A stretch of DNA of 64,000 nucleotides from a virus (IMGVR_UViG_2861079508_000001), one strand, 5' to 3'; shown: positions 6,210-62,997, numbered from the stretch's first letter. Notes: a model not told the origin generated them from the letters alone. A program made the numbers and translations.

Positions 6210-6225
6210 AAACAAATTGTTTTCT
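6210..6225. promoter_or_regulatory. motif 1 operator-like palindrome (AAACAAATTGTTTTCT)
   Basis: In the 43-bp gap upstream of the helicase gene start. Confidence 0.5.
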
Positions 6226-6233
6226 AGTATTAG

Positions 6234-6983
6234 TTAATTAGATAGGGGATCAATAAACCGCCGTGCTTCTTCCAGTTCTTCTGGAAAGTGGGCGGAAATA
6301 AGGCGCTCTGGAACGATTTCCATTAGCCAGATAGCGGAGAAAATTGCGCGTATGCGCTTGCTGCGGGGGATGGTGCGTAAACGCTCCAGAATCCACTCAA
6401 AATAGCTTTCCTGGATCGGGTTGAACTGCATGTCTCCCATATGCTTAAAGCTAACTAGAGAGTCATCCAGACGGGTTGTTGCGCGTCTGGCTAATTTCTC
6501 TTCGAATATCTCAACCAGCTCTGGCTGCCATAAATGCTGTGGGCGCGGCAGCTTGTCCCACAGCCGTCGTGCAGCTGCGGAAAGAACGGTGGAGATAAAG
6601 TAGTCGTATGAGCAGCAATAGCGGTCAGCAAACTGGCGTGCTTTCCATAGAGACGTTTTATTGGCAGTCGACAACTCCTGATAAGGCAGGCGTTTTAACC
6701 CGGTGGTGAACGGAGCTGTTTCAAAGTGTTCGCGACCGTGCGTCAGCATGATATTTGAGTACTGACGTTTGTATGCCTCCGTAAAAAGACAGGTGGCCAT
6801 GAGAGGATGCATGTCGCGGTAATCAAACCACTTCGTCTCGAAGAGTTCAGCCTCGTCTTTACAGCGCGACAAACCAATGTTTTCAGCGACCCACTTGTCC
6901 ATAACAGCGGTATTCCACTCTGTCATGAAGTCGTACTGGTCGTTGTCGATGGTATCGAAAAAGATTTGGCTCATGTGGCTCAC
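6234..6983 (-). CDS. hypothetical protein
   Basis: 249-aa ORF; no family recognised; motif-2 element just upstream. Confidence 0.45.
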   Translation of the reverse strand: MSHMSQIFFDTIDNDQYDFMTEWNTAVMDKWVAENIGLSRCKDEAELFETKWFDYRDMHPLMATCLFTEAYKRQYSNIMLTHGREHFETAPFTTGLKRLPYQELSTANKTSLWKARQFADRYCCSYDYFISTVLSAAARRLWDKLPRPQHLWQPELVEIFEEKLARRATTRLDDSLVSFKHMGDMQFNPIQESYFEWILERLRTIPRSKRIRAIFSAIWLMEIVPERLISAHFPEELEEARRFIDPLSN

Positions 6984-6985
6984 CT

Positions 6986-7010
6986 GGTAGGTAGTTACTT
7001 ACTTATCACA
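6986..7010 (-). promoter_or_regulatory. motif 2 element
   Basis: GGTAGGTAGTTACTTACTTATCACA immediately upstream of gene 6234..6983. Confidence 0.45.
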
Positions 7011-7090
7011 ATGAGCGGATGATAGCGACTGGTGGCAGTTTTTGGAAGTGGAAACGGAAGGGAGTTGTTCTGGTGGTGTCTTTTAAAAGA

Positions 7091-7145
7091 CCTGCTTCCG
7101 TATATATTTAATAAGTTACTTATTATTTATATATACAGAAGCAGG
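7091..7145. repeat. 55-bp near-perfect palindrome, copy 1
   Basis: CCTGCTTCCGTATATATTTAATAAGTTACTTATTATTTATATATACAGAAGCAGG; identical copy at 41241-41295; centre AATAAGTTACTTATT is itself palindromic and motif-2-like. Confidence 0.6.
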
Positions 7146-7256
7146 CATAACTTGTCGTCTTAGACGCCCAGAAGCTCTACACTTTGAGCCTGTTAAATTG
7201 ATTAAAAACTTATGTGTAAAATAGAACGCATTAGTCAGTAGCAAAGAGATGCAATA

Positions 7257-8024
7257 ATGGACGATTTATCGGTATACGCGAGATCATTGGATAAGGCTAA
7301 ATACTATGTTTACTGTCTCTATGATACAGAAGACAAGATGAAAAGACCGTTTTACATAGGAAAAGGCAAATCGACTCGTTGTCTCGATCACATCAAGTAT
7401 CCCGATGACTCTCCCAAATCCATGCGGATCAAAGAACTTTTGGCTAATAAAAAATTAGGCATAGATATACTTCGTCATGGTATGGATGAAACCACAGCCA
7501 AACTTGTTGAGGCGACATGCATCGACCTTATGGGGGTCGGAGAGCTTACGAATAAGGTACGAGGAAGTGGTTCCATGATGGGCAGAATATCACTGGACGC
7601 CTACCATCACTTAGTGCTGCAAGAGGAAACTGAAATTGCTCCTGAGCACGCCGGTCTTGCCTTCCTGCTAAACAGCACCTACAAGTCAGGAATGTCCGCT
7701 CTGGCATTATATGAGGCTACGCGTGGCGTATGGGCAAAGGTTCCAAGAGACGAGAATCTCAAATATGCCTACGCTACATATGGTGGGCTGATAATGGAAG
7801 TTTATCAGATTGAATGCTGGGTCAAAGCCGGTTCTCAGCAGTACTTTACAAGGGATATAGCTCTTGGCCCCGACACAAAACGTTATGAATTTGTTGGCAG
7901 AATAGCCGATGAGCATATTAGAAAACTGTATGTAGGCAAATTAATCAAGAAGCCACCAAGCTACGGTAGCCCTTTTGTGAAGGTTGGGGTGGTTAGGACT
8001 GAACATAGTGTTAGCGCGGCATAA
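7257..8024 (+). CDS. GIY-YIG family nuclease (possible homing endonuclease)
   Basis: N-terminal VYCLYD-x9-YIGKG-x5-R...H matches the GIY-x(9-11)-YIG motif; gene is inverted relative to all neighbours and preceded by a large non-coding region. Confidence 0.5.
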   Translation: MDDLSVYARSLDKAKYYVYCLYDTEDKMKRPFYIGKGKSTRCLDHIKYPDDSPKSMRIKELLANKKLGIDILRHGMDETTAKLVEATCIDLMGVGELTNKVRGSGSMMGRISLDAYHHLVLQEETEIAPEHAGLAFLLNSTYKSGMSALALYEATRGVWAKVPRDENLKYAYATYGGLIMEVYQIECWVKAGSQQYFTRDIALGPDTKRYEFVGRIADEHIRKLYVGKLIKKPPSYGSPFVKVGVVRTEHSVSAA

Positions 8025-8076
8025 AGCTGACACTGTAGTTATGCATTGGCGCAATGTACGCGCCAATGCATGATTT

Positions 8077-8436
8077 TTAACCTTTCTTCATCAACTCTCG
8101 TTTGATTTCATCGGTACGCATCGTGACATCGGCAGCGGTGATCGCCTCATTCAATTTCACGATGTCCTCGATTTCCTGCGGTGACTTCTCTGCCAGATGG
8201 AAAATGGCTGCTCGAATCACGTCAGAACGAGTGAACTTCTCGAAGCGAGGGATGAACTTCATCATCTCCAGCAGTTCGAAGTATTCGTCCTCCAGTGACA
8301 TTGTGCGGCTTTTAATTTTCTCTTTGCCACGAGTCGGGCGTCCCTGTGGTCTGACTGGTTGGCGCAAAGGAGTTGTGTTCTTAGCCGGTGCATCAGGCTC
8401 TTTGCGCTTTGCTAGGTCACCCATTTTCATGGACAT
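8077..8436 (-). CDS. small partition partner protein (ParG/RHH-like), putative
   Basis: 119-aa protein with basic N-terminal tail and a C-terminal segment (FTRSDVIRAAIFHL) compatible with ribbon-helix-helix; directly downstream of ParA with start/stop overlap at 8436. Confidence 0.4.
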   Translation of the reverse strand: MSMKMGDLAKRKEPDAPAKNTTPLRQPVRPQGRPTRGKEKIKSRTMSLEDEYFELLEMMKFIPRFEKFTRSDVIRAAIFHLAEKSPQEIEDIVKLNEAITAADVTMRTDEIKRELMKKG

Positions 8437-9104
8437 TATTCTTCTTCCTCCAGACTCAACAGATAATCTACAAATTCTTCAAACTCGGCTTCCGCCTTTT
8501 TGTCGCGCTCGCTACCGGTCATTTCAAAGATAGAACGACCAGACTCTTCCGCATCATCATAGACGTTGCGGTTATATAGATTGACTGGCGCAGACTCGAT
8601 GCCAAACGTCTCAACAATCTCTTTAGCCGCCAGAATGCGAGACACTTGTGATGGCAAAGCCGGGCACTGGTTCATGACCGCGCGGACCTTCACTTTATCG
8701 TTTACATTACGAACATTGTCGATAATAGGATCGATGTCACGCAGAGATTTCAAATCACGACGCTTAGGACGAAGCGGGATAATGATAACGTCGGCCATCA
8801 GCATCGCTTGTCGCTGAATTTCGGAGTCAAAGCCACCAGCATCTACCACTACATACTCAGCTCTACCCTGAAGCGATTTTAGGTGCTTAATGATGTCATC
8901 CTGAACGTATGCAAAAGGAATCAGCTCAAGGTCTTCGTTCTGTCGACGGTCTTCACACCAGCTCGTTGTCGTGCGCTGAATATCTATATCGGTGATATAA
9001 ACCTTCTTCTTCTTTTTGACTTTCAGGCAAACGGCAATTTGCTGGGCAACGGTGGATTTGCCAGGCCCGCCCTTTGTGCCGCCAACCACAAAGATCTTGG
9101 TCAT
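8436..9104 (-). CDS. ParA/MinD-family partition ATPase
   Basis: Deviant Walker A GGTKGGPGKST at N-terminus; 222 aa. Confidence 0.7.
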   Translation of the reverse strand: MTKIFVVGGTKGGPGKSTVAQQIAVCLKVKKKKKVYITDIDIQRTTTSWCEDRRQNEDLELIPFAYVQDDIIKHLKSLQGRAEYVVVDAGGFDSEIQRQAMLMADVIIIPLRPKRRDLKSLRDIDPIIDNVRNVNDKVKVRAVMNQCPALPSQVSRILAAKEIVETFGIESAPVNLYNRNVYDDAEESGRSIFEMTGSERDKKAEAEFEEFVDYLLSLEEEE

Positions 9105-9138
9105 TGGAGAGTTCCCTTTGCGTATATAATTATCGTCT

Positions 9139-9155
9139 GAAACAACTTGTTTTCT
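9139..9155. promoter_or_regulatory. motif 1 operator-like palindrome (GAAACAACTTGTTTTCT)
   Basis: Upstream of parA, next to TATATAATTATCG. Confidence 0.5.
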
Positions 9156-9243
9156 TATATGTGATATAGCCTAAATGCCTACGGCTGTGGTGTAAAGGTT
9201 AAATGGTAGGTGCTGCCTTAGAATTTTTAGGCGAGAATCAATG

Positions 9244-9276
9244 GCTGTTAACAAAAAAGGCGACCAAAGTCGCCTG
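9244..9276 (-). terminator. rho-independent terminator after gene 9281..10033
   Basis: Minus-sense AGGCGAC-TTTG-GTCGCCT followed by TTTTTTGTT. Confidence 0.55.
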
Positions 9277-9280
9277 ATTT

Positions 9281-11025: not shown

Positions 11026-11026
11026 A

Positions 11027-11719: not shown

Positions 11720-11732
11720 CCTTGATCTCCTG

Positions 11733-12068: not shown

Positions 12069-12117
12069 GAAAAGTCAAATCGGGATGGCGGATTTATATC
12101 ACATTTCACCCTTTTAT

Positions 12118-12143
12118 TGTAGGTGTGTACCTACCTATCATTC
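12118..12143 (-). promoter_or_regulatory. motif 2 element
   Basis: GTGTACCTACCTATCATTC upstream of holin-like gene. Confidence 0.45.
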
Positions 12144-28601: not shown

Positions 28602-28928
28602 ATGACTAAAAATACTCGTTTTTCCCCCGAAGTCCGTCAGAGGGCGATTCGTATGGTTCTGGAAAGTCAGGGCGAATATGACTCACAGTGGGCGGCAATT
28701 TGTTCCATTGCCCCAAAGATTGGCTGTACACCGGAGACTCTGCGTGTCTGGGTACGCCAGCATGAGCGGGATACCGGAGGCGGTGATGGCGGGCTCACCA
28801 CCGCTGAACGTCAGCGTCTGAAAGAGCTGGAACGTGAAAATCGTGAACTGCGCCGCAGTAACGATATCCTTCGCCAGGCTTCCGCTTATTTTGCGAAGGC
28901 GGAGTTCGACCGCCTCTGGAAAAAATGA
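28602..28928 (+). CDS. IS3-family transposase OrfA (HTH/leucine-zipper part)
   Basis: 108 aa [23 protein letters not shown]...; I recognise this as the IS629/IS3-group OrfA; ends at an A-run slippery site. Confidence 0.8.
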
Positions 28929-35794: not shown

Positions 35795-35820
35795 CATAGA
35801 TAACTACTTATCTACTACAC
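35795..35820 (-). promoter_or_regulatory. motif 2 element
   Basis: CATAGATAACTACTTATCTACTACAC between capsid stop codon and terminator hairpin. Confidence 0.45.
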
Positions 35821-39208: not shown

Positions 39209-39220
39209 TTGAATAACCTT

Positions 39221-39242
39221 AGATAATTACCTACCTATCGAG
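39221..39242 (-). promoter_or_regulatory. motif 2 element
   Basis: AGATAATTACCTACCTATCGAG between terminase and portal genes. Confidence 0.4.
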
Positions 39243-40491
39243 AACCACCAAGAATAACACGGTTTTTGACTGGATACCTACGATGTACTGGATAGCCCAA
39301 TGCGTCTGCACTATGCTCAATGCCACCTGTCTTATCCATATCTCGTGTTCCAGGCTTGTAGATGACTTTTTCCAGTGAATCAATCAAATGCTTGCACTTC
39401 GGATCGATATACAACCGGATATCTCCAGATGCGGTCATCAGCATTCGGTTAACAGCATTAACACGATCCGCAATTGGCGGGTGCTTTTTCGAATAATCGA
39501 CACGTAAGAATCCCTTCTCTTTGAATATGTCGACGTCAGACTCCCCGCGAGCATGTTGGCGATAAGCACCTGCCGGATCTGGAAATACCGTTATCTGTGA
39601 TTTCCAGCGCCAGAAGCGTCTCTCAAGCTCATCACAAACCTCTGCCGTGTTAGAGGAAAAGAGCACCAATTCATCAATTGCCCATAGCTCACCATTTGGC
39701 TGAGGTTGCAAAATTACTGAAGACATCGGGTCAATGTTGAAGTCCTGCCCTACCCATATAGGCAACCGAGGGTTGAACTGAAGCGGTTTTACATGCACGT
39801 TACGATCGAACGGGTAGTAAACGCGCCCGGACATGTTCTCAAAGCTCGCCAGGTACTCCTGAGCGAACGATTTCGGGTCCATATCGTTCTTAGCAGCTTC
39901 AATTTCCGCCGTAGGCACAAACGGAGAATCGGCAGTTACAAACTGCCAGCTCTTCCACTGTCCCTTTCTTTGCAGCTCTACGTTCTGGCCTATAGTCCAC
40001 AGTTTGTGAAATTCCGAGAAACCTTTTGGCGTACCAATGATAAGTGCACCGCCGCGTGTCGATGAAAGAGTAGGTCGTAACACCTTGTACCAGGTGTCAG
40101 CCTTCATATCCTGAAATTCATCAAGCACTACAAAATGCAACGCTACGCCGCGCAGAGTGTCAGGCTTATCAGCACCTTTGAGGGCGATCTCCGAACCGTT
40201 CTTCAACACGATTGTCATCGTGGTGTCGTTCTTTTTCCTAACCCACTTACGAGGCAGAACTTCCTGTAGATCGTCCCACAAAATCTGGCGAGCCATCTGG
40301 TAAGTAGGAGCGACATACCAGACCCTTTGCTTTTTTTCCTTTGCCGCCGCACGAATAATAGTGGAGATCGACAACCGGGATTTTCCCCAGCGTCGACCAG
40401 CACAAACAACTTTAAATCGATGCGGAGACTGGAAGACTTTCATCTGTCCAGAATGCAGTTGCACAAGACTGAGCGAGGACGGGATTGCCAT
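39235..40491 (-). CDS. terminase large subunit
   Basis: Walker A VVCAGRRWGKS and Walker B FVVLDEFQD in N-terminal ATPase domain; C-terminal nuclease-like half. Confidence 0.8.
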   Translation of the reverse strand: MAIPSSLSLVQLHSGQMKVFQSPHRFKVVCAGRRWGKSRLSISTIIRAAAKEKKQRVWYVAPTYQMARQILWDDLQEVLPRKWVRKKNDTTMTIVLKNGSEIALKGADKPDTLRGVALHFVVLDEFQDMKADTWYKVLRPTLSSTRGGALIIGTPKGFSEFHKLWTIGQNVELQRKGQWKSWQFVTADSPFVPTAEIEAAKNDMDPKSFAQEYLASFENMSGRVYYPFDRNVHVKPLQFNPRLPIWVGQDFNIDPMSSVILQPQPNGELWAIDELVLFSSNTAEVCDELERRFWRWKSQITVFPDPAGAYRQHARGESDVDIFKEKGFLRVDYSKKHPPIADRVNAVNRMLMTASGDIRLYIDPKCKHLIDSLEKVIYKPGTRDMDKTGGIEHSADALGYPVHRRYPVKNRVILGGSR

Positions 40492-41123
40492 TATTCGTCC
40501 TCCCCTTCACTTCCATCATCTGTCGCATCAAATTCGCTTAGAGCTTCTTCTTCCAACGTCTCAAGCAATTCGTCATCGATGATTTCAGGCTCGTCGTCTT
40601 CCTGACGTAATTTCGCCACCTGGGAAGGCGTAAGCTCACCAAATACCAGGTTCGGAATTTCTTCCTCGTCATTTTCCGCATGATCCATGCCCAATGCTTT
40701 GGACGAAACTTCAAAGCATTTTGCAAGGGTATTACTGGCTCTCTGTAAGCTCTTGAGAGAATCCTCAATCGCCCCTAAAGGCTTACCCTCACGTTTGGCC
40801 GTAGTGACTTCGACCATCACCATCTGCCCCAACGCATACGCCCAGCCGTCATAACGTGTACGACGTTCTTCTATCTTTTCCGCACGGGCTTTAGCGCGAA
40901 GCTCTGCGTCAGATTTAAGAGACTCACGAACCATCTTCCCAACAGAGTCCGCGCCTTTCTCTAATCCTCGCTTTTTGAAATGTCTGGAGAGTGTTTCACG
41001 ACGAATGCCGTACTCTTCCTCCAGCTTTGAGAGTGTATATTCGCCTGACGTCCATTTGGCTTCAGCTTCGGCCCACTCCGCTGGTGTCAGGCGAGTTTTT
41101 ACCTCGTCTTTTTCGACCGTCAT
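40491..41123 (-). CDS. terminase small subunit (putative)
   Basis: 210 aa with N-terminal HTH-like YTLSKLEEEYGIRRETLSRHFKKRG and acidic C-terminal tail; stop overlaps TerL start. Confidence 0.5.
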   Translation of the reverse strand: MTVEKDEVKTRLTPAEWAEAEAKWTSGEYTLSKLEEEYGIRRETLSRHFKKRGLEKGADSVGKMVRESLKSDAELRAKARAEKIEERRTRYDGWAYALGQMVMVEVTTAKREGKPLGAIEDSLKSLQRASNTLAKCFEVSSKALGMDHAENDEEEIPNLVFGELTPSQVAKLRQEDDEPEIIDDELLETLEEEALSEFDATDDGSEGEDE

Positions 41124-41163
41124 AGATCCCTCTAAAACACACAGAGCGCGTCCATGCGCTCTA

Positions 41164-41204
41164 AAACAACTTGTTTACTGCATTTTCTAACCAACTTGTT
41201 TTCT
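41164..41204. promoter_or_regulatory. two motif 1 copies (AAACAACTTGTTTA; CCAACTTGTTTTCT)
   Basis: In the intergenic region upstream of the small terminase gene and downstream of the wHTH gene. Confidence 0.45.
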
Positions 41205-41240: not shown

Positions 41241-41295
41241 CCTGCTTCCGTATATATTTAATAAGTTACTTATTATTTATATATACAGAAGCAGG
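41241..41295. repeat. 55-bp near-perfect palindrome, copy 2
   Basis: Identical to 7091-7145; lies in the non-coding region just upstream of the small terminase gene. Confidence 0.6.
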
Positions 41296-41319: not shown

Positions 41320-41586
41320 TTACATCACCAGTAACTTCGCTTTGGCTCGACCTAAAGTGGTTAACCCAAGAGTTCGGCGGTGATAGCGATTGTCACTGCG
41401 TTGGCGCGTATGCCCTTTCTCCACAAGCCCCTTTTTTATCAGAGCGCGAATTGAGAACTGGATACTTTGCTTGGTTGTCTTGTACGGCAAAACTTCAAGC
41501 AATTCGTCCAGATCAAGTAGATAACCTCGCTCATAACCGAGATTGAGCGTTTTGATGATGTCCTTTTGTTTATCGGTTAACGTCAT
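41320..41586 (-). CDS. small winged-helix DNA-binding protein
   Basis: 88 aa; wHTH-like segment (QSIQFSIRALIKKGLVEK); adjacent to two operator-like motif-1 copies. Confidence 0.4.
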   Translation of the reverse strand: MTLTDKQKDIIKTLNLGYERGYLLDLDELLEVLPYKTTKQSIQFSIRALIKKGLVEKGHTRQRSDNRYHRRTLGLTTLGRAKAKLLVM

Positions 41587-42486: not shown

Positions 42487-43148
42487 GAATGGACCTCATC
42501 GTGACTACCATTGTGATATTCCACCTTCACGCGTTCTTTGTAGTGCTTGGTGATCTGCATATCCGGGCGCAGCGCGTTCTTCAGGTCTTCGTGAGTCGTC
42601 GCCACCATTACCGTCGCACCAACCTTTCGAGCGGCACGCTGGAGGTTAGACGCCACAACCTGAGCGGTTACACGGTCGAGAACAGCGCCGAACTCGTCAG
42701 CAGCCCACACTTTAGCGCCTGACTCAATCAGTTTGGCAATCTTGAGACGATATTTCTGGCCGTCTGACATTTCAGAAGGCTTGCGAACAAACAGATATGC
42801 ATCGTTCAGACCAGCCATAGATAACAACCCAAGCGCATCACTGGTCGTTTTGCCCAACTGATCGATGACGTTAACCTCATTATCGAAGGTAAAATCATCG
42901 ATGGAGGCTACAGACAGCCCTTCATCCTTCATCTGTCGTTGCAACTCGCGCAGCACAACGGATTTGCCGGAACCGGATTGGCCGGTGATGTACACCACAT
43001 CGCCCTGCTTCACTTCCAGCTCCAGATTGTCGTAAAGCGTCCACTCTTTTTCGTCCAGGCCAAGCCCGAACGACTCAGCGATTTCCAACGTGCGCGTGGT
43101 TTTATTTACGCGTGTCTGAAACGATACGTTGATGATGTATTTGCTCAT
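42483..43148 (-). CDS. soluble ABC-type ATPase
   Basis: Walker A GQSGSGKS, ABC signature MSDGQKYRL, Walker B VWAADEF, H-loop TTHED; no transmembrane domain. Confidence 0.6.
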   Translation of the reverse strand: MSKYIINVSFQTRVNKTTRTLEIAESFGLGLDEKEWTLYDNLELEVKQGDVVYITGQSGSGKSVVLRELQRQMKDEGLSVASIDDFTFDNEVNVIDQLGKTTSDALGLLSMAGLNDAYLFVRKPSEMSDGQKYRLKIAKLIESGAKVWAADEFGAVLDRVTAQVVASNLQRAARKVGATVMVATTHEDLKNALRPDMQITKHYKERVKVEYHNGSHDEVHS

Positions 43149-43813
43149 GCAGCCATCTCCCCGGAAGAGATCTTCTCCGCATATGCCACAAATGCGTCTA
43201 CCCCGCTTTCTCCCGTCATTTCTTCCATGTGGGCAAGCAAATCACCAACAACAATGGCAGAGCCAGCAGGGAGCGTTTTAAAGCCCAATACGTCGACAAC
43301 ACGTACTTCTTCCGCTGCAACTTCACGACTGATCTCGGTGTGTTCATCCTTCTGTCGTTTAGTTTCTTCGCCAAGATCGATAACTAGCGAGTCGGTGTCC
43401 ATTTCTTCTGTCATACTGCCAACGAGAACATTCAACTCACGCTCTTCAAAGCCGAAAACCTCGATATCGTCCAGAACAAGCGACTCAAGCTCTTTCTGTA
43501 GCTTAATTGCATCGTAATCAATGCTGGCAAGTCGGTTATCTTCAAGGCGCTTCGCACGAACCTCGTCATCACTGAGATCATCGCGAACAATAACCGGTAC
43601 GCGCTCAAGTCCAGCAAAAATTGCAGCCTCACGGCGGCCGTGGCCAGTAATAATTACGTCGTTCTTATCGACCGTAATTGGCTGGTCAAATCCGCGCTTT
43701 TTAATGGCTGCGGCTAGATCTCGGATCTGCTGTTCATCATGCTTTTTGGCATTCATCTCATAGGGAATAAGATCTGCCGGGTCGCGATATACGATTTCAA
43801 ACTTTTTGGTCAT
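43145..43813 (-). CDS. ParB-like nuclease-domain protein
   Basis: ITGHGRREAA motif (ParB/Srx box); start set at ATG overlapping upstream stop (TAATG). Confidence 0.55.
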   Translation of the reverse strand: MTKKFEIVYRDPADLIPYEMNAKKHDEQQIRDLAAAIKKRGFDQPITVDKNDVIITGHGRREAAIFAGLERVPVIVRDDLSDDEVRAKRLEDNRLASIDYDAIKLQKELESLVLDDIEVFGFEERELNVLVGSMTEEMDTDSLVIDLGEETKRQKDEHTEISREVAAEEVRVVDVLGFKTLPAGSAIVVGDLLAHMEEMTGESGVDAFVAYAEKISSGEMAA

Positions 43814-44493
43814 TACATACGCTCCTTGTAGTAGTCGACCAGCCACACCAGAGCCTCACCAGCGTTCTCCATTTCATTACCGGTGTTAATAGCCTGCTCT
43901 TTGATGATGTTTTTTATGGTTTCTGCAACACGATCTGACGCATCGAAAGTTACTTTGAAGCGCATGGTCTGATGTTCCGCACCCACACGTTCGGTTTTCT
44001 CTCGTTTGTCGGTATCGACAGGCTCATCACTACCACGAGACAACGCCTCCAGTGCTTCAAGGTCGATTGCCGCCTCTTTTGCTAAAACCATCGAGATTTC
44101 GTCGTCATACGGGGCGATTTCAGACAGTTGATAGTCAAGTTCTGACTGAATTTCTTCAATGAAGCGTTGCAATGCGATTTGGTCGTCTTCACCGTATCGC
44201 TCGTTGTCCACCAGTGACATCTGTTTAGCTACGACATCGCTAATTTTGCCCACAGAAAGCACCGGAACCGTTGAAATTCCTTGCTCAATAGCAGCACGCC
44301 AGCGATGTTCGCCGCCGAGGATTTCAAAAAATCCATCTTCAAGTTCACGAGCCAAAATTGGCTTAAAAAAGCCCAATTTTTCGATAGAACCTTTCAGTTT
44401 TTCAAAATTCTGCGCACCAACCGAATTGGTGTTCCAGGTATTCGGGCGAAGGTTGGCAACATCAACCTGCAAAATCGTGATTTTTACATCCAT
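43813..44493 (-). CDS. ParB-like nuclease-domain protein
   Basis: LRPNTWNTN and ILGGEHRWRAA motifs (ParB N-terminal domain boxes); start set at first ATG. Confidence 0.6.
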   Translation of the reverse strand: MDVKITILQVDVANLRPNTWNTNSVGAQNFEKLKGSIEKLGFFKPILARELEDGFFEILGGEHRWRAAIEQGISTVPVLSVGKISDVVAKQMSLVDNERYGEDDQIALQRFIEEIQSELDYQLSEIAPYDDEISMVLAKEAAIDLEALEALSRGSDEPVDTDKREKTERVGAEHQTMRFKVTFDASDRVAETIKNIIKEQAINTGNEMENAGEALVWLVDYYKERM

Positions 44494-44507
44494 TTTATTG
44501 CTACAAT

Positions 44508-44536
44508 ACACTAAGTAACCACTTACTTATTATAAT
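44508..44536. promoter_or_regulatory. motif 2 element in divergent intergenic region
   Basis: ACACTAAGTAACCACTTACTTATTATAAT between ParB-like gene start and helicase gene. Confidence 0.45.
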
Positions 44537-46137: not shown

Positions 46138-46416
46138 ATGAGCGAAAAGAAAACAACTTATTGTCAGGTAGCATTGTCTGATAAGGCCAATGACAAACTT
46201 GGAAAGTTTCAAGTGAAACTAAAAGAAAAAAATATCAAAATGTCTAAGGCTGAAGTCATAAATACCATTCTGGAACAATTGACAATGGCCGACTTTGACA
46301 AGGTTATATCTTCTGTCGGGGCTTCCGCTAAGACTCGTGAGAAAATCATGCGTATCTATGAGAACTCTAATATGACAAAGGAAGATCTCGAAACGCTATT
46401 AAGCAGATTAAAATAA
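46138..46416 (+). CDS. hypothetical small protein
   Basis: 92 aa starting 3 nt after helicase stop; charged helical; possible DNA-binding. Confidence 0.4.
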   Translation: MSEKKTTYCQVALSDKANDKLGKFQVKLKEKNIKMSKAEVINTILEQLTMADFDKVISSVGASAKTREKIMRIYENSNMTKEDLETLLSRLK

Positions 46417-46911: not shown

Positions 46912-47436
46912 ATGACAACCAAAGATATTACCTACGGTATCCAAGCTGAACTCTGGCCGCGAGATTACACTAACGTTGAAAAACTACTGATGTTCTGGCG
47001 CAGAGAACAAATTCCTGTAAGGGTCACTCTCGAAGATGGCCAGGCGTTTTGCATGTACGTTTATGGCCTCATGCCATCTCGTAACAAAGTTGACCTTTGC
47101 CCAGCCCCTTTTGACAAAGAAAATCGTATAAGGCTCCCACTTGAACGCATTAGTACAATTGAATCAGGTGTGGTTGACAGTATCGCTCACGATTTCAAAG
47201 GTCGACTAACAGTTCACCCTGATTATGTCGATAATCGGCCATCACGCCGCGATTTTTTTGCAATTTGCAACCAAGCCTACAAAGCAAACAAATCTATAAG
47301 GGTGTACATGGCGGATGGCCGTGAAATTGAGGGGGTGTCAGCAGGCGCAGATGCTTGTCAGGTTACACTACGTGTCGAGAACGGTAGAAAAATAGTTGTT
47401 TTGTTCGATTGGGTTGAACGAATTTTGCCTTTTTGA
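46912..47436 (+). CDS. hypothetical protein
   Basis: Start trimmed to first ATG after upstream stop; ~175 aa. Confidence 0.4.
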   Translation: MTTKDITYGIQAELWPRDYTNVEKLLMFWRREQIPVRVTLEDGQAFCMYVYGLMPSRNKVDLCPAPFDKENRIRLPLERISTIESGVVDSIAHDFKGRLTVHPDYVDNRPSRRDFFAICNQAYKANKSIRVYMADGREIEGVSAGADACQVTLRVENGRKIVVLFDWVERILPF

Positions 47437-49803: not shown

Positions 49804-50286
49804 TTACACGCCATCAAGGATGTGGATGCGGTTGCTTGCGTATACATTCAGCATAAAGTTAGCGCAAAACAGTTTCCATGTATCAACGCCAGCGGTATAC
49901 GTAATGTTTTTGCATTTAATTGCATTGTTGGCGATCCGCATCCCCTGCGATACTGCTTCATCGTCGGAAAATTTGAACGACGATTGAGTTTTAATCCAGA
50001 CAGAAATCTGCGTAGCGAACTCAATCAGCTTGGACTGGCAGAATCGCCCGGAGCGCACCGGAAGGACGAACGTTCCGAATCCAGAATTTACCACATATGC
50101 TTTCTCAAATACCCGCGAGTAACGACGATTGCCAATGATGTCGCGTGCAATAATGCATTTTTCTTGTGCTGACAGTTCTACCGTCTCATTGTCGCGCCAT
50201 GCACCAAGTACTCGTTTTTCAATGTCAGAGAACGTTACAGCGATATTGCCATGTGCGGGTGCGTTTACAGTAGCGATAAAATTCAT
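49804..50286 (-). CDS. hypothetical protein
   Basis: 160 aa; own promoter with motif-1 operator between GATAAT and RBS. Confidence 0.45.
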   Translation of the reverse strand: MNFIATVNAPAHGNIAVTFSDIEKRVLGAWRDNETVELSAQEKCIIARDIIGNRRYSRVFEKAYVVNSGFGTFVLPVRSGRFCQSKLIEFATQISVWIKTQSSFKFSDDEAVSQGMRIANNAIKCKNITYTAGVDTWKLFCANFMLNVYASNRIHILDGV

Positions 50287-50307
50287 GATTAATTCCTTAT
50301 CGTAAAT

Positions 50308-50322
50308 AACAAATTGTTTTCT
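50308..50322. promoter_or_regulatory. motif 1 operator-like palindrome
   Basis: Minus-sense layout GATAAT - 8 nt - AGAAAACAATTTGTT - RBS - ATG of gene 49804..50286. Confidence 0.55.
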
Positions 50323-51067: not shown

Positions 51068-51083
51068 AGAAAACAAATTGTTA
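51068..51083. promoter_or_regulatory. motif 1 variant (AGAAAACAAATTGTTA)
   Basis: Upstream of gene 50637..51011. Confidence 0.45.
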
Positions 51084-51649: not shown

Positions 51650-51961
51650 TCAGGCTATTGCCATCACTGATGCTCTCTGAATTTCTTGCTGGGCCACGCG
51701 GTTAACTTCCATCAAGGCCAGTTCGAGCTGATGTTCCGGCCACATTCTTTGAAACGCCATCCAGCCTTTTCCACGCTGGCGACGAACATTCATTACATAA
51801 CGAGTAAAGGTGTTTTTATCGAAAGACACCGCTGTTTCACGGAACAGACGAATAGAGGTTCCATTGGCAACGATGTCCAGCAAAGTTAATTGAGCAACCA
51901 GCGCAGGCTTCTCTTTTCTCTTCTGGTCTTTGTCCAGACCAAGAACCAATGATTTTTTCAT
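51650..51961 (-). CDS. hypothetical basic protein
   Basis: Start set at internal ATG (MKKSLVLGLD...) because the motif-1 operator overlaps the longer ORF. Confidence 0.45.
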   Translation of the reverse strand: MKKSLVLGLDKDQKRKEKPALVAQLTLLDIVANGTSIRLFRETAVSFDKNTFTRYVMNVRRQRGKGWMAFQRMWPEHQLELALMEVNRVAQQEIQRASVMAIA

Positions 51962-51972: not shown

Positions 51973-51988
51973 AAACAACTTGTTTTCT
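51973..51988. promoter_or_regulatory. motif 1 operator-like palindrome
   Basis: Between TATTATTTA (-10-like) and ATG of gene 51650..51961. Confidence 0.55.
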
Positions 51989-52115: not shown

Positions 52116-52445
52116 TTACGCGAATACCTCAAGAAACTCCTGAACGTCCCAATGCTGGACGAGGTGAAGATAGACCTTAGAAATCACGTCATTTTCGCTA
52201 TCGCATGTGAAGTAGTACTTCTGGCTGCGGTTGTATGTGTCCACACAAAATTCGCTCATATCCATAAAGTCAGCATCATCACCCAGGTCGCTAATCATCA
52301 AAGCAGGTGCATCATCACGAGTCATCAGCTCCAGCACCCATCTTGAATTAATCAGAGTGGAAGACCAACCTTCCAGCTCATAAAACTGGTCAAACTCTTT
52401 TTGAGTCAATTTCTTAATTTGGTTGATGTCGATATTTGCAAACAT
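52116..52445 (-). CDS. hypothetical small acidic protein (candidate DNA-mimic/anti-restriction-like)
   Basis: Start at ATG preceded by AAGGA; ~110 aa with many Asp/Glu; GATAAT + motif-1 operator upstream. Confidence 0.45.
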   Translation of the reverse strand: MFANIDINQIKKLTQKEFDQFYELEGWSSTLINSRWVLELMTRDDAPALMISDLGDDADFMDMSEFCVDTYNRSQKYYFTCDSENDVISKVYLHLVQHWDVQEFLEVFA

Positions 52446-52458
52446 AAAGCAATCCTTA

Positions 52459-52474
52459 AACAAGATGTTTTCTT
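52459..52474. promoter_or_regulatory. motif 1 variant (AGAAAACATCTTGTTT)
   Basis: Between GATAAT and RBS AAGGA of gene 52116..52445. Confidence 0.5.
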
Positions 52475-53049: not shown

Positions 53050-53900
53050 GCTTCTTCGCTATACATGTTGTGTTTTATCTGTCTCAACCTCTCTATAGGC
53101 GTTAATGCTCACTCCTTCCAGAATGTTCTATACGGCAACTATTTCTGTTGGTGAATTGGGTGTGTTGTTCTCTCTGTCGGTGTATGTGGTTTCGTTCGTT
53201 TTGCGGTGGTTCTTCTATGGGGTGTTCTCGTCGTTTTGGTGATTGTTCTTCTCCGTGTATGGAGTAATGGCAGGTGGGCGATTCCTTTCGTTGTTGTGTT
53301 TGAGTTGTTTGTCTGGAGTGTGTGAAAGGCTTTTGCAGTTATTCGTGTATTGGGTAATGGCATTTCCCGTGATTGTTGTGTTTCGTGTCTTTTGGGATTG
53401 AGAGAAACCTTGCGGTTACAGGCTTCGTTGGGGTTTCAGTGATTCTGGTGTTCTTCGCTGTTTGGGGAATGGCGTGTCGTGGGTATCGCGCGTATGAATG
53501 TTTTCGGATTGCCTGTGAAAGTTAGGTTGGTTGTCCGGTAGCCTGGGGAGAAGAGGTGGGTCTTTTCGGTAGCCTGCCATAAAGAGGTTGGTTGTTTTTG
53601 GAAATGGCATTTGTGTTATTTAGTTGTTTTGTTATGCCTGAAAATAAGTTGTTTATATGGTTGTGTAACGCAACGGGAGCGATTTTGAGCGTGTGTTTTT
53701 GTTGGTAGTGTGTTGGGTCGTCTGTGGTGAAAATTGGACGCTGTGGCGCTGTCTGCTGCGTAGAGTTACGGGTATAAGCAGTGATGTGTGAAAACGTCAA
53801 TTTTTTAGACCAAATCGGGTGAAAGCGTTGATGTTTCGTTGATCTGTTATTCAGTTGTTTTCTTGATTGTATAAACAACTATAACTTATTGATATTTAAG
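53050..53900 (+). repeat. GT-skewed non-coding region with periodic GGnTAATGGCA-type repeats
   Basis: Plus strand almost exclusively G/T-rich; recurring TGGAGTAATGGCAGG, TTGGGTAATGGCATTT, GGGGAATGGCGTG, TGGAAATGGCATTTG at ~85-130-bp spacing; also CGGTAGCCTGGGGAGAAGAGGTGGGT duplicated and related to 50400-50430. Confidence 0.5.
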
Positions 53901-54702: not shown

Positions 54703-54951
54703 TCAGCATTTTACCACCCCGTTCGGAAACAACTCATTCGCCGTAGTTGATATAACCTCCCAATTAACGCCGACATCAGCGTTATGGCATTGTCTGATTT
54801 TTTGCATCACCTGTACGCATTGTTCATCAGTGAGATCTGTCCTTACTTCAGCAATATCTTCTTTGTGCCACATAACCATGAGTAAGGGTTCGTCTTCTGG
54901 ATAGTTTTTCAGTTTCTCGATGATTTCTTTTGCTGTTCCAAACATCTTCAT
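54703..54951 (-). CDS. hypothetical small protein
   Basis: 82 aa; RBS GGAG; two motif-1 copies bracketing a GATAAT upstream, abutting the metG terminator. Confidence 0.5.
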   Translation of the reverse strand: MKMFGTAKEIIEKLKNYPEDEPLLMVMWHKEDIAEVRTDLTDEQCVQVMQKIRQCHNADVGVNWEVISTTANELFPNGVVKC

Positions 54952-54956
54952 CTCCT

Positions 54957-55021
54957 AAACAATTTGTTTTCTTATATGACTTATTATCTCAATCAACAAA
55001 AGGTAGAAAACAAATTGTTTT
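54957..55021. promoter_or_regulatory. promoter region with two motif 1 copies bracketing GATAAT
   Basis: AAACAATTTGTTTTCT (54957-54972) and AGAAAACAAATTGTTTT (55005-55021) upstream of gene 54703..54951; ~35 bp from metG terminator. Confidence 0.55.
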
Positions 55022-58396: not shown

Positions 58397-58583
58397 TAAA
58401 AAGGTGGTGCTTTTGCCGTTACGCACCACCCCGTCAGTAGCTGAACAGGAGGGACAGCTGATAGAAACAGAAGCCACTGGAGCACCTCAAAAACACCATC
58501 ATACACTAAATCAGTAAGTTGGCAGCATCACCGAGCGCCAGCGGCGAACATATGAGCTTCGGAAATACTAGACATTCTTAACT

Positions 58584-58642
58584 CCGTTGTTTTCTAGTTG
58601 TGGTTATTTTCACAAATAAGAAAAGATAGAAAACAATTTATT
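58584..58642. promoter_or_regulatory. motif 1 half-sites (TTGTTTTCT ... AGAAAACAA) separated by ~32 bp
   Basis: Downstream of apbC; no obvious gene served; possibly degenerate. Confidence 0.3.
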
Positions 58643-58694
58643 TAAGGCCACAACTTATGGCCTTTATTTATTCATGCCGAAGGATTTGTAGCGT

Positions 58695-59779: not shown

Positions 59780-59820
59780 GTGTTTTTCTCTTATCGTTTA
59801 GTAACTACATTCTTACATAA

Positions 59821-59849
59821 ATTAAGTAAGCATTTACCTATCATTTAAC
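59821..59849 (-). promoter_or_regulatory. motif 2 element
   Basis: ATTAAGTAAGCATTTACCTATCATTTAAC upstream of gene 59075..59779. Confidence 0.4.
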
Positions 59850-61526
59850 GCGTTTGAAAACGTATACGCTGACTGTGATCCCTGTGTCTTCAAACTCGTT
59901 GGTAAACGACTTCCCTCTGGCATAAACGTAATTATCCATCGTCATCCAGTCCAGTATTGGCGCAGTGCCCGGCAATACTGCTACAAGACGCCCGCCGACT
60001 TTCAGATGCCCCAGCGCAGCCAGCGTGTGCTCTCTATGACGACCAAGCGAGTACGGCGGGTTCATAACGATTTTGTCGAACTGATAACCTGCGTTGTCCT
60101 CAGACCACTTTATGAAGTCGCAGCAAATCGTGTTCGTATACCCTTTTCCACGCAGGATATCAGCGAAGAGAGGTGCGATTTCTATGCAGGTAACATCTTC
60201 CAGATCGGCGTCAATATAGGCCAGAAGATCCCCACGTCCGGCTTGAGGCTCCAACAGCTTCTCACCAGGCTTCAATTCAGTGGCTCTTGCAACGTACTCA
60301 GCAATCAAGCGTGGGGTAGGGTAGAACTGGTGTGATTTTGTATCCGGTATTAAACCGGTAGCCACAATCGTATTTAGCGTATGGCCGATGTCATACGGGA
60401 ACTGCCAGTGCTTTTTCTCCTGCACGCCGCCAATGAAGCTCAGTGTGCGCTCAAGCTCTTCCACCTGCGACTTCTGGAGAGCTGAATCAGAGAAGTACCA
60501 TACACCTTTGTCTTTGCTCAATCGCCCGTCACGAAGCGCAGTGCGAACCGGCACGGAGATCGTCTTCTGGATTAAACCGAACTGCTTTGGTGCCCGTGTT
60601 TTTGGCGCAGTTCGGCATGGCGCGGGGATTGCAGCAGGCATACTGTAAGCCAGCACCTCATTCAACTTCCAGGCCACGTCAGGATGTATTTCAAAGTGAA
60701 CGTTGCCGTTCTTGAACATCTTCACGCGCATCAGATTTCCATCGACGTTCATCCAGTCACCGGTCTGGCAGTCGTTTGCCCGATACGCAGCTGATAGCAC
60801 CTCAGCAGTGCGGTTGATGGTAATAAATTCTTTGTGCGCGAAGAAATGAAGCAAGACACGCAGATCGTCGATGTAGTCCTCTTTGCGATAGTTCACGCTA
60901 ACGCTGTCCCGCCAGAAATCAGAAATGCAGTCAGCGATTATCAGCCGCTCGCTGAAACCATTTGTCTTATTTGTCTTGTGCACAGGACTCAGCGCCTTAA
61001 ACAAGCCATACACGCGCTCAGAGAGATATTTGTGCCTGTCATTCAGCAAATTAAGCATCGTGGGTATGACCGTTTCTGCTTTGAACTCCGGTACACCAAC
61101 GAACTCTTTAACCTTCATCTGGTAGCCGGTTCTGTCAGTTTTGATGACTTCCTGTTTGCCCTCTATAAACTGCTCGCGCCACTCATCTCGACGGGAAGCT
61201 GGCATGATCAGCAAAACGTTAGTCATGTCCGTGACCTTCCTCCAGTACTCGGCCCAAATATTCTGTTTCACCCATTCCAGATCGACTTTATCCAACCAAC
61301 CTCGATTTAAACGCGAGCGATCTTCATCTGGTCGATGGTTTAGTTTCAGCAGGCGATTAATCATGTTGTGGCGTTCGTCGCCATAAACGAAGTTGTGAAC
61401 CTGATACATGAAGGCGATCTCTTTCTCGCACTCGGCCACAATTTCGTGGATAACGTTCATTTCCTGACGATAATCGATAGCAGTGTTTGAGCTGGCATCG
61501 TCGATGATGGAAAGGGCTGTATTCAT
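59841..61526 (-). CDS. N6-adenine DNA methyltransferase with large N-terminal domain of unknown function (no adjacent restriction gene seen)
   Basis: C-terminal region has FYPTP...LEPQAGRGDLL (SAM-binding motif I region) and IVMNPPY (motif IV NPPY); 561 aa. Confidence 0.65.
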   Translation of the reverse strand: MNTALSIIDDASSNTAIDYRQEMNVIHEIVAECEKEIAFMYQVHNFVYGDERHNMINRLLKLNHRPDEDRSRLNRGWLDKVDLEWVKQNIWAEYWRKVTDMTNVLLIMPASRRDEWREQFIEGKQEVIKTDRTGYQMKVKEFVGVPEFKAETVIPTMLNLLNDRHKYLSERVYGLFKALSPVHKTNKTNGFSERLIIADCISDFWRDSVSVNYRKEDYIDDLRVLLHFFAHKEFITINRTAEVLSAAYRANDCQTGDWMNVDGNLMRVKMFKNGNVHFEIHPDVAWKLNEVLAYSMPAAIPAPCRTAPKTRAPKQFGLIQKTISVPVRTALRDGRLSKDKGVWYFSDSALQKSQVEELERTLSFIGGVQEKKHWQFPYDIGHTLNTIVATGLIPDTKSHQFYPTPRLIAEYVARATELKPGEKLLEPQAGRGDLLAYIDADLEDVTCIEIAPLFADILRGKGYTNTICCDFIKWSEDNAGYQFDKIVMNPPYSLGRHREHTLAALGHLKVGGRLVAVLPGTAPILDWMTMDNYVYARGKSFTNEFEDTGITVSVYVFKRVK

Positions 61527-61538
61527 AATTACACCATT

Positions 61539-61554
61539 AAATAATTTGTTTTCT
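61539..61554. promoter_or_regulatory. motif 1 operator-like palindrome
   Basis: Upstream of methyltransferase gene, followed by GGTGTAATTATCG as at 50323-50340. Confidence 0.55.
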
Positions 61555-61667
61555 GATTGGTGTAATTATCGCAAACTTGAAAAGGCATAAAAGCTGCATT
61601 CATAGGCGTTACAGCAGATTTAAGGCGTAAAAATGGGGGCTGTCGCCCCCTGTCGACTGGTGCTGTA

Positions 61668-62234
61668 TTAGAGTGCGTATTGCGTTTTGTGCGGCTGCTT
61701 ATTCAAGTCATGGCGATGCGTGAGCTCCCGCATCATGTCTTCAAGGCGACTCTTTGTGTCGTCGAGCTGGTCGGCCATTGCACCTAAAAGCTGGCGAACG
61801 GCCATCGGATCGTCGCTGTTTAGTGATGGCATTTTAGAACCTGCTTTAGAAGACATAAGGTTGATTGCAGACATCAACATCGTTAGAGAGGATTTAAGCC
61901 CGGCAATTTCACGATCTTTGCTGGCAATAATCGTCTCACTTTTGTTACCGTCATCAGTTTCTTGAGTCTCGCTCACCATATCCAAAGTCGCTTGCAACTT
62001 ATCAGCTCTCTCTTTTTCAGCAAGGTAATGAACACCGAAATGGTGTGCCAAAGCTACAATCTGAGTTGGCTCTTCAAAGGTGGAATTAAAATTAAGTATT
62101 GTAAACAGTCTCTCAAATATGGAAACGTCTTCTATTCCTCGAAGAATGGCTAACATTTTGACCAGTTCATTAGCATCCATTTCTTCGAATAAGGCGTTTT
62201 GTTCATCAGCTATCGCTTTGCATTTCTTGCACAT
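61668..62234 (-). CDS. hypothetical protein
   Basis: 188 aa; N-terminal CxxC; motif-1 operator upstream. Confidence 0.45.
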   Translation of the reverse strand: MCKKCKAIADEQNALFEEMDANELVKMLAILRGIEDVSIFERLFTILNFNSTFEEPTQIVALAHHFGVHYLAEKERADKLQATLDMVSETQETDDGNKSETIIASKDREIAGLKSSLTMLMSAINLMSSKAGSKMPSLNSDDPMAVRQLLGAMADQLDDTKSRLEDMMRELTHRHDLNKQPHKTQYAL

Positions 62235-62252
62235 GTGTTTTTCCTAATGCTT

Positions 62253-62268
62253 AAACAAGTTGTTTTCT
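62253..62268. promoter_or_regulatory. motif 1 operator-like palindrome (AAACAAGTTGTTTTCT)
   Basis: Upstream of gene 61668..62234. Confidence 0.55.
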
Positions 62269-62531
62269 TATTGTCTTTATTGTGATGTGGCATAAAAGGG
62301 GAGCAAGCTAAACGTAAAGGTGCAAACTCTCTATTTCGGTCAACGAAACACAAGGGCCATTTGGCCCTTGTCATTAACACTTTGCTTTACGAACTAACGG
62401 ATAAGCGAAGTAGATCGCCAAACCAATGAGGACGCCATCAGAAATGACAGACATCATCTTTCCCGTAAAATCCACCAACACCGCCATCACCAGAAGAGCA
62501 ATGACGATCACAAGCCGGAATCTCTCAAGCA

Positions 62532-62957
62532 TTAGAGATAAGCATCCAGTGACAACTGAAGCGCCTGGGCGATCTTTTTCAGTGCCTGCTCTTCTTGTTC
62601 ACCAATGCCGTCCTGATCGGCAATATCAAGGCACAGACACAGAACATCGACCGCCTCTGGAGTACCCGCAATATCAGACAGCTCACGAATAGCCTGTGCA
62701 TTAGCAGAACGAGGGGACGCTTCGTAACGAGCACGGATATTGGCGCTCATTTGGGCAATTTCACCAGCAAACGGAGAAAACGCAGGCAGAGCTGCAATTG
62801 TCTTCTCAAGAATGGCAATTTCTTTTGCGTCACATGTGCCGTCGGCATAGGAGATCATGTACGCGCCCCACACGGTGGCCTCAACCGCATCACGGTTCTC
62901 CATTTTTTTGACTTCGATAACAGCTTTACGAGTTTTCTTTTTGAAGAAACCTAACAT
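62532..62957 (-). CDS. TerB-like domain protein (tentative)
   Basis: 141 aa helical protein with pattern reminiscent of TerB/DjlA-N domains (ISYADG...EIAILEK...DIADQDG...EEQALKKIA); family call from pattern only. Confidence 0.35.
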   Translation of the reverse strand: MLGFFKKKTRKAVIEVKKMENRDAVEATVWGAYMISYADGTCDAKEIAILEKTIAALPAFSPFAGEIAQMSANIRARYEASPRSANAQAIRELSDIAGTPEAVDVLCLCLDIADQDGIGEQEEQALKKIAQALQLSLDAYL

Positions 62958-62980
62958 GTGCTTTCCTTTTATTATTTGTC

Positions 62981-62997
62981 AAAACAAGTTGTTTTCT
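62981..62997. promoter_or_regulatory. motif 1 operator-like palindrome (AAAACAAGTTGTTTTCT)
   Basis: Upstream of TerB-like gene. Confidence 0.55.

Follow-up and report, generated by a model that had tools for sequence, protein, structure and literature searches.

A recurring asymmetric palindrome, a probable dispersed operator, at promoters of an SSU5/pHCM2-type phage-plasmid

Several plasmids and phage-plasmids scatter the binding sites of one regulator over many of their promoters. The C1 repressor of P1 recognises asymmetric 17-mers (ATTGCTCTAATAAATTT). KorB of the IncP plasmid RK2, which is also a partition protein, binds OB, a 13-bp palindrome of the form 6+1+6 (TTTAGCSGCTAAA) present in about 12 copies. 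The omega protein of pSM19035 and ParG of TP228 are ribbon-helix-helix (RHH) centromere-binding proteins of type Ib partition and read short sub-sites (6-7 bp) that are either inverted or directly oriented, and N15 carries four dispersed palindromic sites, some of them in phage promoters, for SopB, a type Ia ParB-family protein. Here we describe a palindromic element, motif 1, that recurs along a 64,000-nt stretch of viral DNA (IMGVR_UViG_2861079508_000001; hereafter the window, meaning the whole stretch that was analysed) and that probably represents a set of dispersed operators for a single protein encoded by the element itself.

Between 40 and 64 kb, the window shares 99.9% identity with the Escherichia coli plasmid pSJC33-2 (NZ_CP080257.1, 113,446 bp) and 96-98% with the Escherichia phages Cyrano, PhiR41_1 and CMS-2020a; across 40% of the length of this part, it shares about 80-84% with Salmonella phage SSU5 and Klebsiella phage-plasmids. 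Judged by these identities, the window is an SSU5/pHCM2-type phage-plasmid of E. coli. Elements of this type are frequent among clinical E. coli, Klebsiella, Salmonella, Enterobacter and Citrobacter, and resistance cargo of the ISEcp1 type is found in some of them. Whole genomes were compared for pSJC33-2, SSU5, Cyrano (OV696614.1), a distant relative from K. pneumoniae (CP027615.1) and a still more distant one from Moellerella wisconsensis (NZ_CP093251.1). In the literature that we searched on SSU5/pHCM2 regulation and partition, neither motif 1 nor the silencing of lytic genes in such elements is described, and a literature search with the motif string returned primers as its sole matches.

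The palindrome reported by a first-pass annotation of this DNA does recur far more often than expected. The 19-mer queried, AGAAAACAANTTGTTTTCT, has 13 matches in the window at up to three mismatches, against 0.04 expected from shuffled sequence, and its core, AAACAAnTTGTTT / AAACAANTTGTTT, has 15 matches at up to one mismatch, against 0.21 expected from composition; dyad symmetry, a generic feature of operators, is thus well above chance. All 15 sites lie upstream of annotated genes (binomial P = 2e-8 for the placement, even with a crude open reading frame (ORF) mask that wrongly swallows four of them), and the 30-kb structural and morphogenesis block at 10-40 kb holds none except at the promoter that precedes terS. 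About 13 transcription units are served in the window (Table 1): those of a DnaB-like helicase, of parA, of terS and the late operon (two sites), of seven small genes at 49.8-55 kb, of a gene cut by the insertion sequence (IS) IS1, of a DUF4942 methyltransferase-like protein, of a 188-aa protein and of a TciA-like protein. The positions listed by the first-pass annotation were right to within 1-3 nt (6210, 9140, 41164, 41189, 50307, 51071, 51973, 52458, 54957, 55008, 58631, 61539, 62253 and 62982), and one site that it missed, at 53639-53654, is kept in SSU5 (90740) and Cyrano (94605).

A consensus built from 14 sites of the replicon, oriented by their downstream genes, is the asymmetric 16-nt word AGAAAACAAnTTGTTT, which contains a 13-bp symmetric core with a free centre base and is what we call motif 1. 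Among 59 sites from three genomes, the AGA/TCT extension is found on one flank only in 56 and is perfect on both flanks in none. The 19-nt perfect palindrome, which never occurs as such, therefore arises from merging the two orientations, and AGAAAACAAnTTGTTT is the real consensus; of the near-perfect 17-19-bp palindrome first described, the symmetric 13-bp core stands and the two-sided extension does not. Of the two half-sites noted at 58584/58628, one is a lone half-site (58587-58595), and 58628 counts as a complete, inverted site.

With transcription starts placed about 7 nt after predicted -10 boxes, the sites fall into three arrangements. In class A, the motif is centred near +14 and comes 10-11 nt after a -10 box that reads GATAAT or TATTAT, often with TGn before it. 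In class A', the motif comes 0-2 nt after the -10 box and is centred near +5; in the helicase promoter, TTGATC-17-TAATAC/TAGTAT, it abuts the -10 box and the predicted start lies inside it. In class B, the motif is inverted (AAACAAnTTGTTTTCT), lies exactly 16 nt upstream of the -10 box and is centred near -38. The placement between -10 box and ribosome-binding site (RBS) proposed earlier thus suits about three quarters of the sites, the remainder (51068, 53639, 55005 and 58628) being class B, an arrangement with many more examples in CP027615.1, where it is found in most small-gene promoters. Spacing to the -10-like hexamers, many with a TGn extension, is fixed, and the AGA-extended arm faces the -10 box at every site. 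A simple -35/-10 scan left the motif-1 promoters uncalled because most of them have no -35 box.

Some promoters have individual features. A GATAAT box lies 5 nt downstream of the site in the parA promoter, and the gene served by the site at 51068..51083 is on the minus strand, with its upstream region ending at about 51053. The DUF1380 promoter combines a class A and a class B site 51 bp apart from centre to centre, or about five helical turns, and the pair recurs in SSU5 (88319, 88367) and Cyrano (93114, 93162). The tandem terS pair, made up of two class A-type sites, is likewise present in SSU5 (positions 53 and 78) and in Cyrano. Between this pair and the terS RBS, at 41125-41160 on the minus strand, stands a terminator-like hairpin, AGAGCGCatggaCGCGCTCT followed by GTGTGTTTT, which suggests attenuation or antitermination control of the late operon. 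Behind the promoter at 58628, an IS1 terminal repeat (58400-58575, minus strand) cuts the ORF after 15 codons and metG-apbC cargo adjoins; the matching neighbourhood of Cyrano has Ea22-like genes and a UmuD-like gene with a LexA box instead.

Table 1. Positions of motif-1 sites, motif-2 copies and the gene of the leading candidate regulator in the window
Feature	Sequence	Position	Strand	Context
Motif-1 site	AGAAAACAATTTGTTT	6210..6225	-	DnaB-like helicase gene 4850-6190 (-)
Motif-1 site	AGAAAACAAGTTGTTT	9140..9155	-	parA promoter
Motif-1 site, upstream member of tandem pair	AGAAAACAAGTTGGTT	41189..41204	-	promoter/leader of terS and late operon
Motif-1 site, downstream member of tandem pair	AGTAAACAAGTTGTTT	41164..41179	-	25 bp from the first site
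Motif-1 site, class A		50307..50322	-	11 nt after GATAAT; gene 49804-50286 (160 aa)
Motif-1 site, class B (inverted)		51068..51083	+	16 nt upstream of TGtGAAAAT extended -10 box
Motif-1 site, class A, perfect match		51973..51988	-	11 nt after TGgTATTAT; gene 51650-51961 (basic, 103 aa)
Motif-1 site, class A	AGAAAACATCTTGTTT	52458..52473	-	10 nt after TGcGATAAT; gene 52116-52445 (acidic, 109 aa)
Motif-1 site, class B, weaker	TGAAAATAAGTTGTTT	53639..53654	+	upstream of minus-strand 64-aa ORF 53416-53610
Motif-1 site, class A, perfect match		54957..54972	-	10 nt after TGaGATAAT; DUF1380-family gene 54703-54951
Motif-1 site, class B, perfect match		55005..55020	+	same DUF1380 promoter; 16 nt upstream of GATAAT
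Motif-1 site, class B	AGAAAACAATTTATTT	58628..58643	+	16 nt upstream of TGtGAAAAT
Lone half-site	AGAAAACAA	58587..58595	-	downstream of -10 box of the 58628 promoter
Motif-1 site, class A		61539..61554	-	10 nt after TGcGATAAT; DUF4942 methyltransferase-like gene 59841-61526
Motif-1 site, class A, perfect match		62253..62268	-	10 nt after CACAAT; gene 61668-62234 (188 aa)
Motif-1 site, class A, perfect match		62982..62997	-	TciA-like gene 62532-62957
Motif 2		6988-7005, 12120-12137, 35797-35814, 37713-37730, 39220-39237, 44512-44529, 59823-59840, 63874-63891		
Leading candidate regulator, ParG-like protein, 119 aa		8077..8436	-	directly after small type Ib-like ParA gene 8436-9104 (-)

Motif 1 is conserved across relatives to an extent that its surroundings are not. 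In an unbiased count of all 6+gap+6 palindromes, AAACAA-n-TTGTTT ranks first in three genomes, with 9 exact copies in pSJC33-2, 11 in SSU5 and 16 in CP027615.1; at up to one mismatch the counts are 18, 20 and 21, respectively, with 18 in Cyrano, against 0.2-0.4 expected. Sites stand at orthologous promoters while the flanks diverge. Across 34 distinct IMG/VR sequences of the helicase promoter, the motif has an entropy of 0.10, the 30 nt before it 0.53 and the stretch from motif to ATG 0.24, so that motif 1 is the best-conserved non-coding stretch there. This pattern indicates that the motif is under purifying selection. An IMG/VR scan for the motif returned, among the matches listed, mostly SSU5-type contigs, and the site in the parA promoter is kept in SSU5, CP027615.1, L323 and L324.

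The Moellerella plasmid keeps the gene order. It has 3 core hits against 0.74 expected, a chance level, and its orthologous promoters keep an A-rich stretch without the palindrome; the exception is an exact AGAAAACAA, a half-site only, upstream of parA (chance probability in the 150-bp region about 0.0025, estimated from base composition). In CP027615.1 (12811-13400, L130), lone AGAAAACAA half-sites come after full sites, directly repeated at spacings of 25 and 17 bp, which suggests that this 9-mer is the recognition unit.

The motif appears to act as DNA. Folded as RNA, the palindrome reaches no more than -0.7 to -1.8 kcal/mol (z about 0 against shuffled sequence), in line with the earlier view that the stem is too short and loopless for an RNA hairpin; a search of Rfam found no family at the motif-1 sites, and variant sites lose pairing on one side without compensatory changes. 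Because the position of the motif relative to the -10 box varies and class B sites are predicted to lie outside their own mRNA, motif 1 is unlikely to be an RNA element or an element of the core promoter. The first-pass view of a dispersed, promoter-tied DNA element compatible with a single-regulator regulon is supported.

Expression in the prophage state was examined with the RNA sequencing data published for every gene of Cyrano in an LF82 lysogen (PMC9928086, Supplementary Table S1). When motif-1 sites were mapped onto Cyrano, the first genes downstream (n = 13) had a median of 7.45 normalised counts, compared with a prophage background of 9.8, and many of these silent genes have TGnGATAAT boxes, as would fit the repression of promoters of constitutive appearance. 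Above background were ParA (49.8), the helicase (21.1) and CYRAN_111 (25.5).

We consider it probable, at roughly 65%, that motif 1 is the double-stranded DNA operator of one protein encoded by the phage-plasmid, which acts at about 13 promoters of the window and keeps them low. In the whole replicon 15-17 promoters would be bound, mostly ones with an extended -10 box and no good -35 box. The protein would cover +5 to +20 in class A, -5 to +11 in the helicase promoter and -44 to -29 in class B, hindering binding or escape of RNA polymerase in each position: in classes A and A' it would block open-complex formation or promoter escape, and in class B it would occupy the place of the missing -35 contacts. 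A dimer, or a dimer of dimers, may sit on the 13-bp core and contact the AGAAAACAA arm more strongly, and sites 25 or 51 bp apart may allow cooperative binding or DNA looping. The promoters for replication, partition, modification, accessory functions and the terS/late operon would thus be held low in the plasmid-prophage state. Cyrano is induced by ciprofloxacin (PMC9928086), and relief on induction could come about either through titration of the protein by replication or through an antirepressor. Both the negative sign of the regulation and the identity of the binder are what we infer from these patterns.

To rank candidate binders we considered their expression in the lysogen, the conservation of their DNA-reading segments where the motif is identical, and a site in their own promoter. 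Tentatively, at somewhat less than even odds, we favour the ParG-like protein. Its 119-aa ORF overlaps the stop codon of parA, whose 222-aa product has no N-terminal DNA-binding domain and matches AAA_31, MipZ, CbiA and ParA; a small Walker-type ParA gene followed by the gene of a small centromere-binding protein is the order of type Ib partition loci. The Cyrano orthologue, CYRAN_29, reaches 89 in the lysogen, about 9-fold above the background of 9.8. The segments MGDLAK, PQGRPTRGK..I.SRTMS.EDE and FTRSDVIRAAI are invariant across lineages in which the protein is otherwise 45-50% identical, and in all lineages examined the motif stands in the promoter of its operon; three of them have it as a nearly symmetric 19-bp form. 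As in omega and ParG systems, sites stand in the parA promoter and also in about 15 others, the ParG-like protein being their presumed ligand; contiguous 7-8-bp repeat arrays were not found near the par genes, where there are single sites only, with rare extra half-sites in CP027615.1. An AlphaFold2 monomer model has a disordered tail (1-47) and helices at 48-60 and 70-84, and fits the strand-helix-helix of a dimer, by which an RHH fold is suggested. The gene is present in 796 PLSDB plasmids, and the family is confined to SSU5-type contigs. A search of IMG/VR for distant loci returned relatives of more than 91% identity only, and a 43%-identical match in an IncFIB plasmid is an IS-disrupted fragment.

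The competing candidates each fail at least one of the ranking tests, so that of the four regulators proposed in the first-pass annotation only the ParG-like protein survives, conservation, expression or fold making the other three unlikely. The 88-aa winged helix-turn-helix protein, p88, is conserved in the motif-less Moellerella plasmid, and its mRNA is at background in the lysogen. A 92-aa protein (46138-46416) with an RHH-like pattern is expressed (114); its DNA-facing strand residues change from lineage to lineage (Y/Q/A, H/Q/Q, S/H/K) while the motif is invariant, so that a different, lineage-specific target is probable. The basic 103-aa protein is modelled as a four-stranded sheet with a helix (AlphaFold2, predicted local distance difference test (pLDDT) 80), for which Foldseek returned NTF2-like noise only and no DNA-binding fold. 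A further candidate, the XRE-family 'putative repressor' encoded outside the window, has a different palindrome, GGTAAGCACTTACC, in its own promoter, and SSU5 has no such gene yet carries both motif 1 and the second palindrome described below.

Several observations weigh against these readings. The promoter starts at motif-1 sites are derived from predicted boxes, and a one-sided AGA extension is odd for a symmetric dimer. The silence of motif-1 genes is compatible with repression and is unspecific, because most Cyrano prophage genes are equally silent: at least 25 counts are reached by 2 of the 13 first genes and by a broadly similar proportion of the rest of the prophage. The motif-bearing parA operon is expressed at 5-9 times background, so that repression there is partial at most. 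For the ParG-like protein, the monomer model is of low confidence (pLDDT 63), and no significant match was found in Pfam, in a PDB sequence search, by hhalign against ParG and omega, or by Foldseek. Moellerella keeps its conserved reading head without having the dispersed sites, and among the lineages compared there is none in which the protein and the motif change together.

The operator could belong to a different protein of the phage-plasmid, be it p88 (41320-41586), a ParB_N protein (43145-44511) acting in the manner of KorB, or an unannotated small protein; we regard this as unlikely, though it deserves to be kept in mind. The ParB-ParB-ABC-ABC-p88 operon is 77-87% identical in CP027615.1, compared with about 50-70% for most other genes, the p88 gene lies directly upstream of the terS tandem sites, the first ParB-like protein matches Spo0J and Noc and has a GGEHRWRAA box, and the 6+1+6 core together with the sites centred near -38 resembles KorB OB sites. 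However, the mRNAs of p88 and of both ParB-like proteins are at background in the Cyrano lysogen (5-9.5), and their putative DNA-reading segments are kept in Moellerella, which has no motif-1 palindromes; these proteins fit the second palindrome, found in all lineages, better. A KorB-type regulator would belong to the ParB family, have a helix-turn-helix and be expressed in the plasmid state, whereas no canonical ParB helix-turn-helix is visible after box III and expression is at background. Much less probable is a host transcription factor of Enterobacteriaceae that is missing or different in Morganellaceae, even though phage-plasmids of E. coli, Salmonella and Klebsiella share an invariant motif that is absent in Moellerella, where most phage-encoded candidates persist. 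The perfect 19-mer occurs in 104 stretches of 596 Gb of species-representative genomes, and the approximately 80 of these that were listed are scattered singles, mostly in AT-rich Bacillota and Bacteroidota, with none in an enterobacterial chromosome. Host regulons, moreover, rarely retain 20 near-identical sites, and motif 1 is not known to match the box of any enterobacterial regulator.

Two readings that dispense with a repressor on DNA seem to us very improbable. One takes the motif, as RNA in the 5' untranslated region (UTR), to be the target of an FljA-like protein (46912-47436, plus strand), which matches PF03614 over its full length (E = 2.5e-84), with a weak Hfq-like match besides. 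FljA acts post-transcriptionally (PMC2652032), and the Salmonella protein blocks translation of fliC mRNA; class A sites would fall in the 5' UTR in a fixed orientation, and each of the three motif-bearing lineages has the FljA-like gene, which the Moellerella plasmid lacks. On the other hand, class B sites, being located before the predicted -10 box, would fall outside the mRNA, the predicted start of the helicase transcript is inside the motif, motif RNA folds no better than shuffled sequence, and the E. coli fliC leader contains nothing similar to motif 1. Among relatives with an identical motif, the FljA-like protein is 33-83% identical (up to 100%), a variability that is at odds with the constant motif and suits a host-directed accessory gene better; it was set aside as the binder, and may instead shut off host flagellin. 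The other reading makes the motif a positive or intrinsic promoter element, either a -35 substitute or an initial transcribed sequence, that marks a temporal class of promoters, much as MotA boxes replace the -35 box at T4 middle promoters. The fixed -10 spacing, the absent -35 box and the extended arm always turned toward the -10 box are what such an element would show, and the orthologous Moellerella promoters have an A-rich, AAGAAAAACAA-like stretch after the -10 box but not the palindrome. Yet a single word occupies three incompatible positions (about +14, +5 and -38), its palindromic core is conserved on both arms, and we know of no mechanism by which a site centred at +14 recruits polymerase. 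An operator bound by one phage-plasmid protein therefore remains our preferred reading.

Other elements were noticed in the course of this work. A second dispersed palindrome, motif 2, reads TA(G/A)GTAAGnnCTTAC(C/T)TA and is usually flanked by ga...tc. It occurs in about 20-27 copies per genome at the loosest threshold and in all lineages including Moellerella. Copies lie inside late operons, between terL and the portal gene, behind the capsid gene and ahead of the genes for tail fibre and holin. A perfect copy is found outside the window, in the promoter of the gene for the XRE 'putative repressor'; motif 2 looks like a separate, family-wide regulon. Two identical copies of a 55-bp palindromic element, CCTGCTTCCGTATATATTTAATAAGTTACTTATTATTTATATATACAGAAGCAGG, are found at 7091-7145 and 41241-41295. 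There is a third, partial copy in pSJC33-2, and SSU5 has three related ones, in one of which its deposited linear sequence ends, just upstream of the terS promoter; the element might be a packaging or centromere site. The two ParB_N proteins (43813-44511 and 43145-43846, both on the minus strand) head the ParB-ParB-ABC-ABC-winged helix-turn-helix operon, the most conserved of the family; in the first of them the GGEHRWRAA box is of the CTP-binding type, and a C-terminal MRFKVTFDASDRV... segment looks like an RHH rather than the usual ParB helix-turn-helix. In the tail-gene region, an ALIL pseudoknot (28883-28999, plus strand; Rfam RF01497, 120 bits), the frameshift signal of the IS3 family, coincides with a local rise in GC content. 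In the Cyrano lysogen, CYRAN_43 (40268-40822 in OV696614.1; 112263-112799 in pSJC33-2) reaches 7084 normalised counts, about 720-fold above background, which, with the integrase and XRE genes adjoining, hints at a highly expressed small RNA or immunity factor; the high value of CYRAN_40 is explained by overlapping tRNA genes.

A 16-nt word at nearly every early and accessory promoter offers a handle for fishing out the regulator and for defining regulons by sequence; it gives a set of co-regulated promoters around small acidic and anti-defence-like genes, and it bears on whether partition and lysogeny control form one circuit. A bolder version of our reading, which we put forward as doubtful, is that the ParG-like protein, besides its role in partition, also silences about 15 phage and accessory promoters, those of the terS/late operon and the helicase included, and that the roughly 20 operators double as a dispersed centromere. 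If true, segregation, copy number and the choice between lysis and lysogeny would be coupled through one small protein in a clinically widespread family of phage-plasmids, and all promoters could fire once replication runs away after induction and titrates out the repressor.

Taken as a whole, motif 1 appears by analogy to join the dispersed-operator logic of P1 C1, RK2 KorA/KorB, pSM19035 omega and N15 SopB, with a sequence that matches none of them. As with P1 C1, one regulator of a plasmid prophage would act on numerous scattered operators that overlap promoters belonging to separate operons; motif 1 is unlike the P1 operators in sequence, no C1 homologue was seen, although no search aimed at one was made, and motif-1 sites lie directly on the late (terS) promoter. 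With RK2 KorB/OB it shares a 13-bp palindrome and one class of sites about 39-40 bp upstream of the starts. The sequences of the KorB and KorA sites differ from it, most motif-1 sites lie downstream of the -10 box, and the ParB_N proteins here, unlike KorB, are unexpressed in the lysogen and persist in the motif-less relative. The resemblance to N15 lies in palindromic partition-protein sites scattered through a phage-plasmid, some in phage promoters, by which partition is tied to the expression of phage genes; there are four sites in N15 and about 20 here, and the protein would be type Ib-like if the ParG-like candidate is right. The element resembles omega and ParG systems in having a small ParA gene followed by the gene of a small basic protein, with sites in the par promoter and in others, whereas contiguous heptad arrays there contrast with single 13-16-bp sites here, and the RHH fold of the candidate is at most suggested. 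Omega and ParG are not known to have regulons that extend, as the one proposed here would, to genes for phage replication and packaging. The use of one protein for both partition and global repression is itself a feature of omega and ParG systems, and if the ParG-like protein does bind motif 1, its role would be that of omega of pSM19035, partition protein and global repressor in one.

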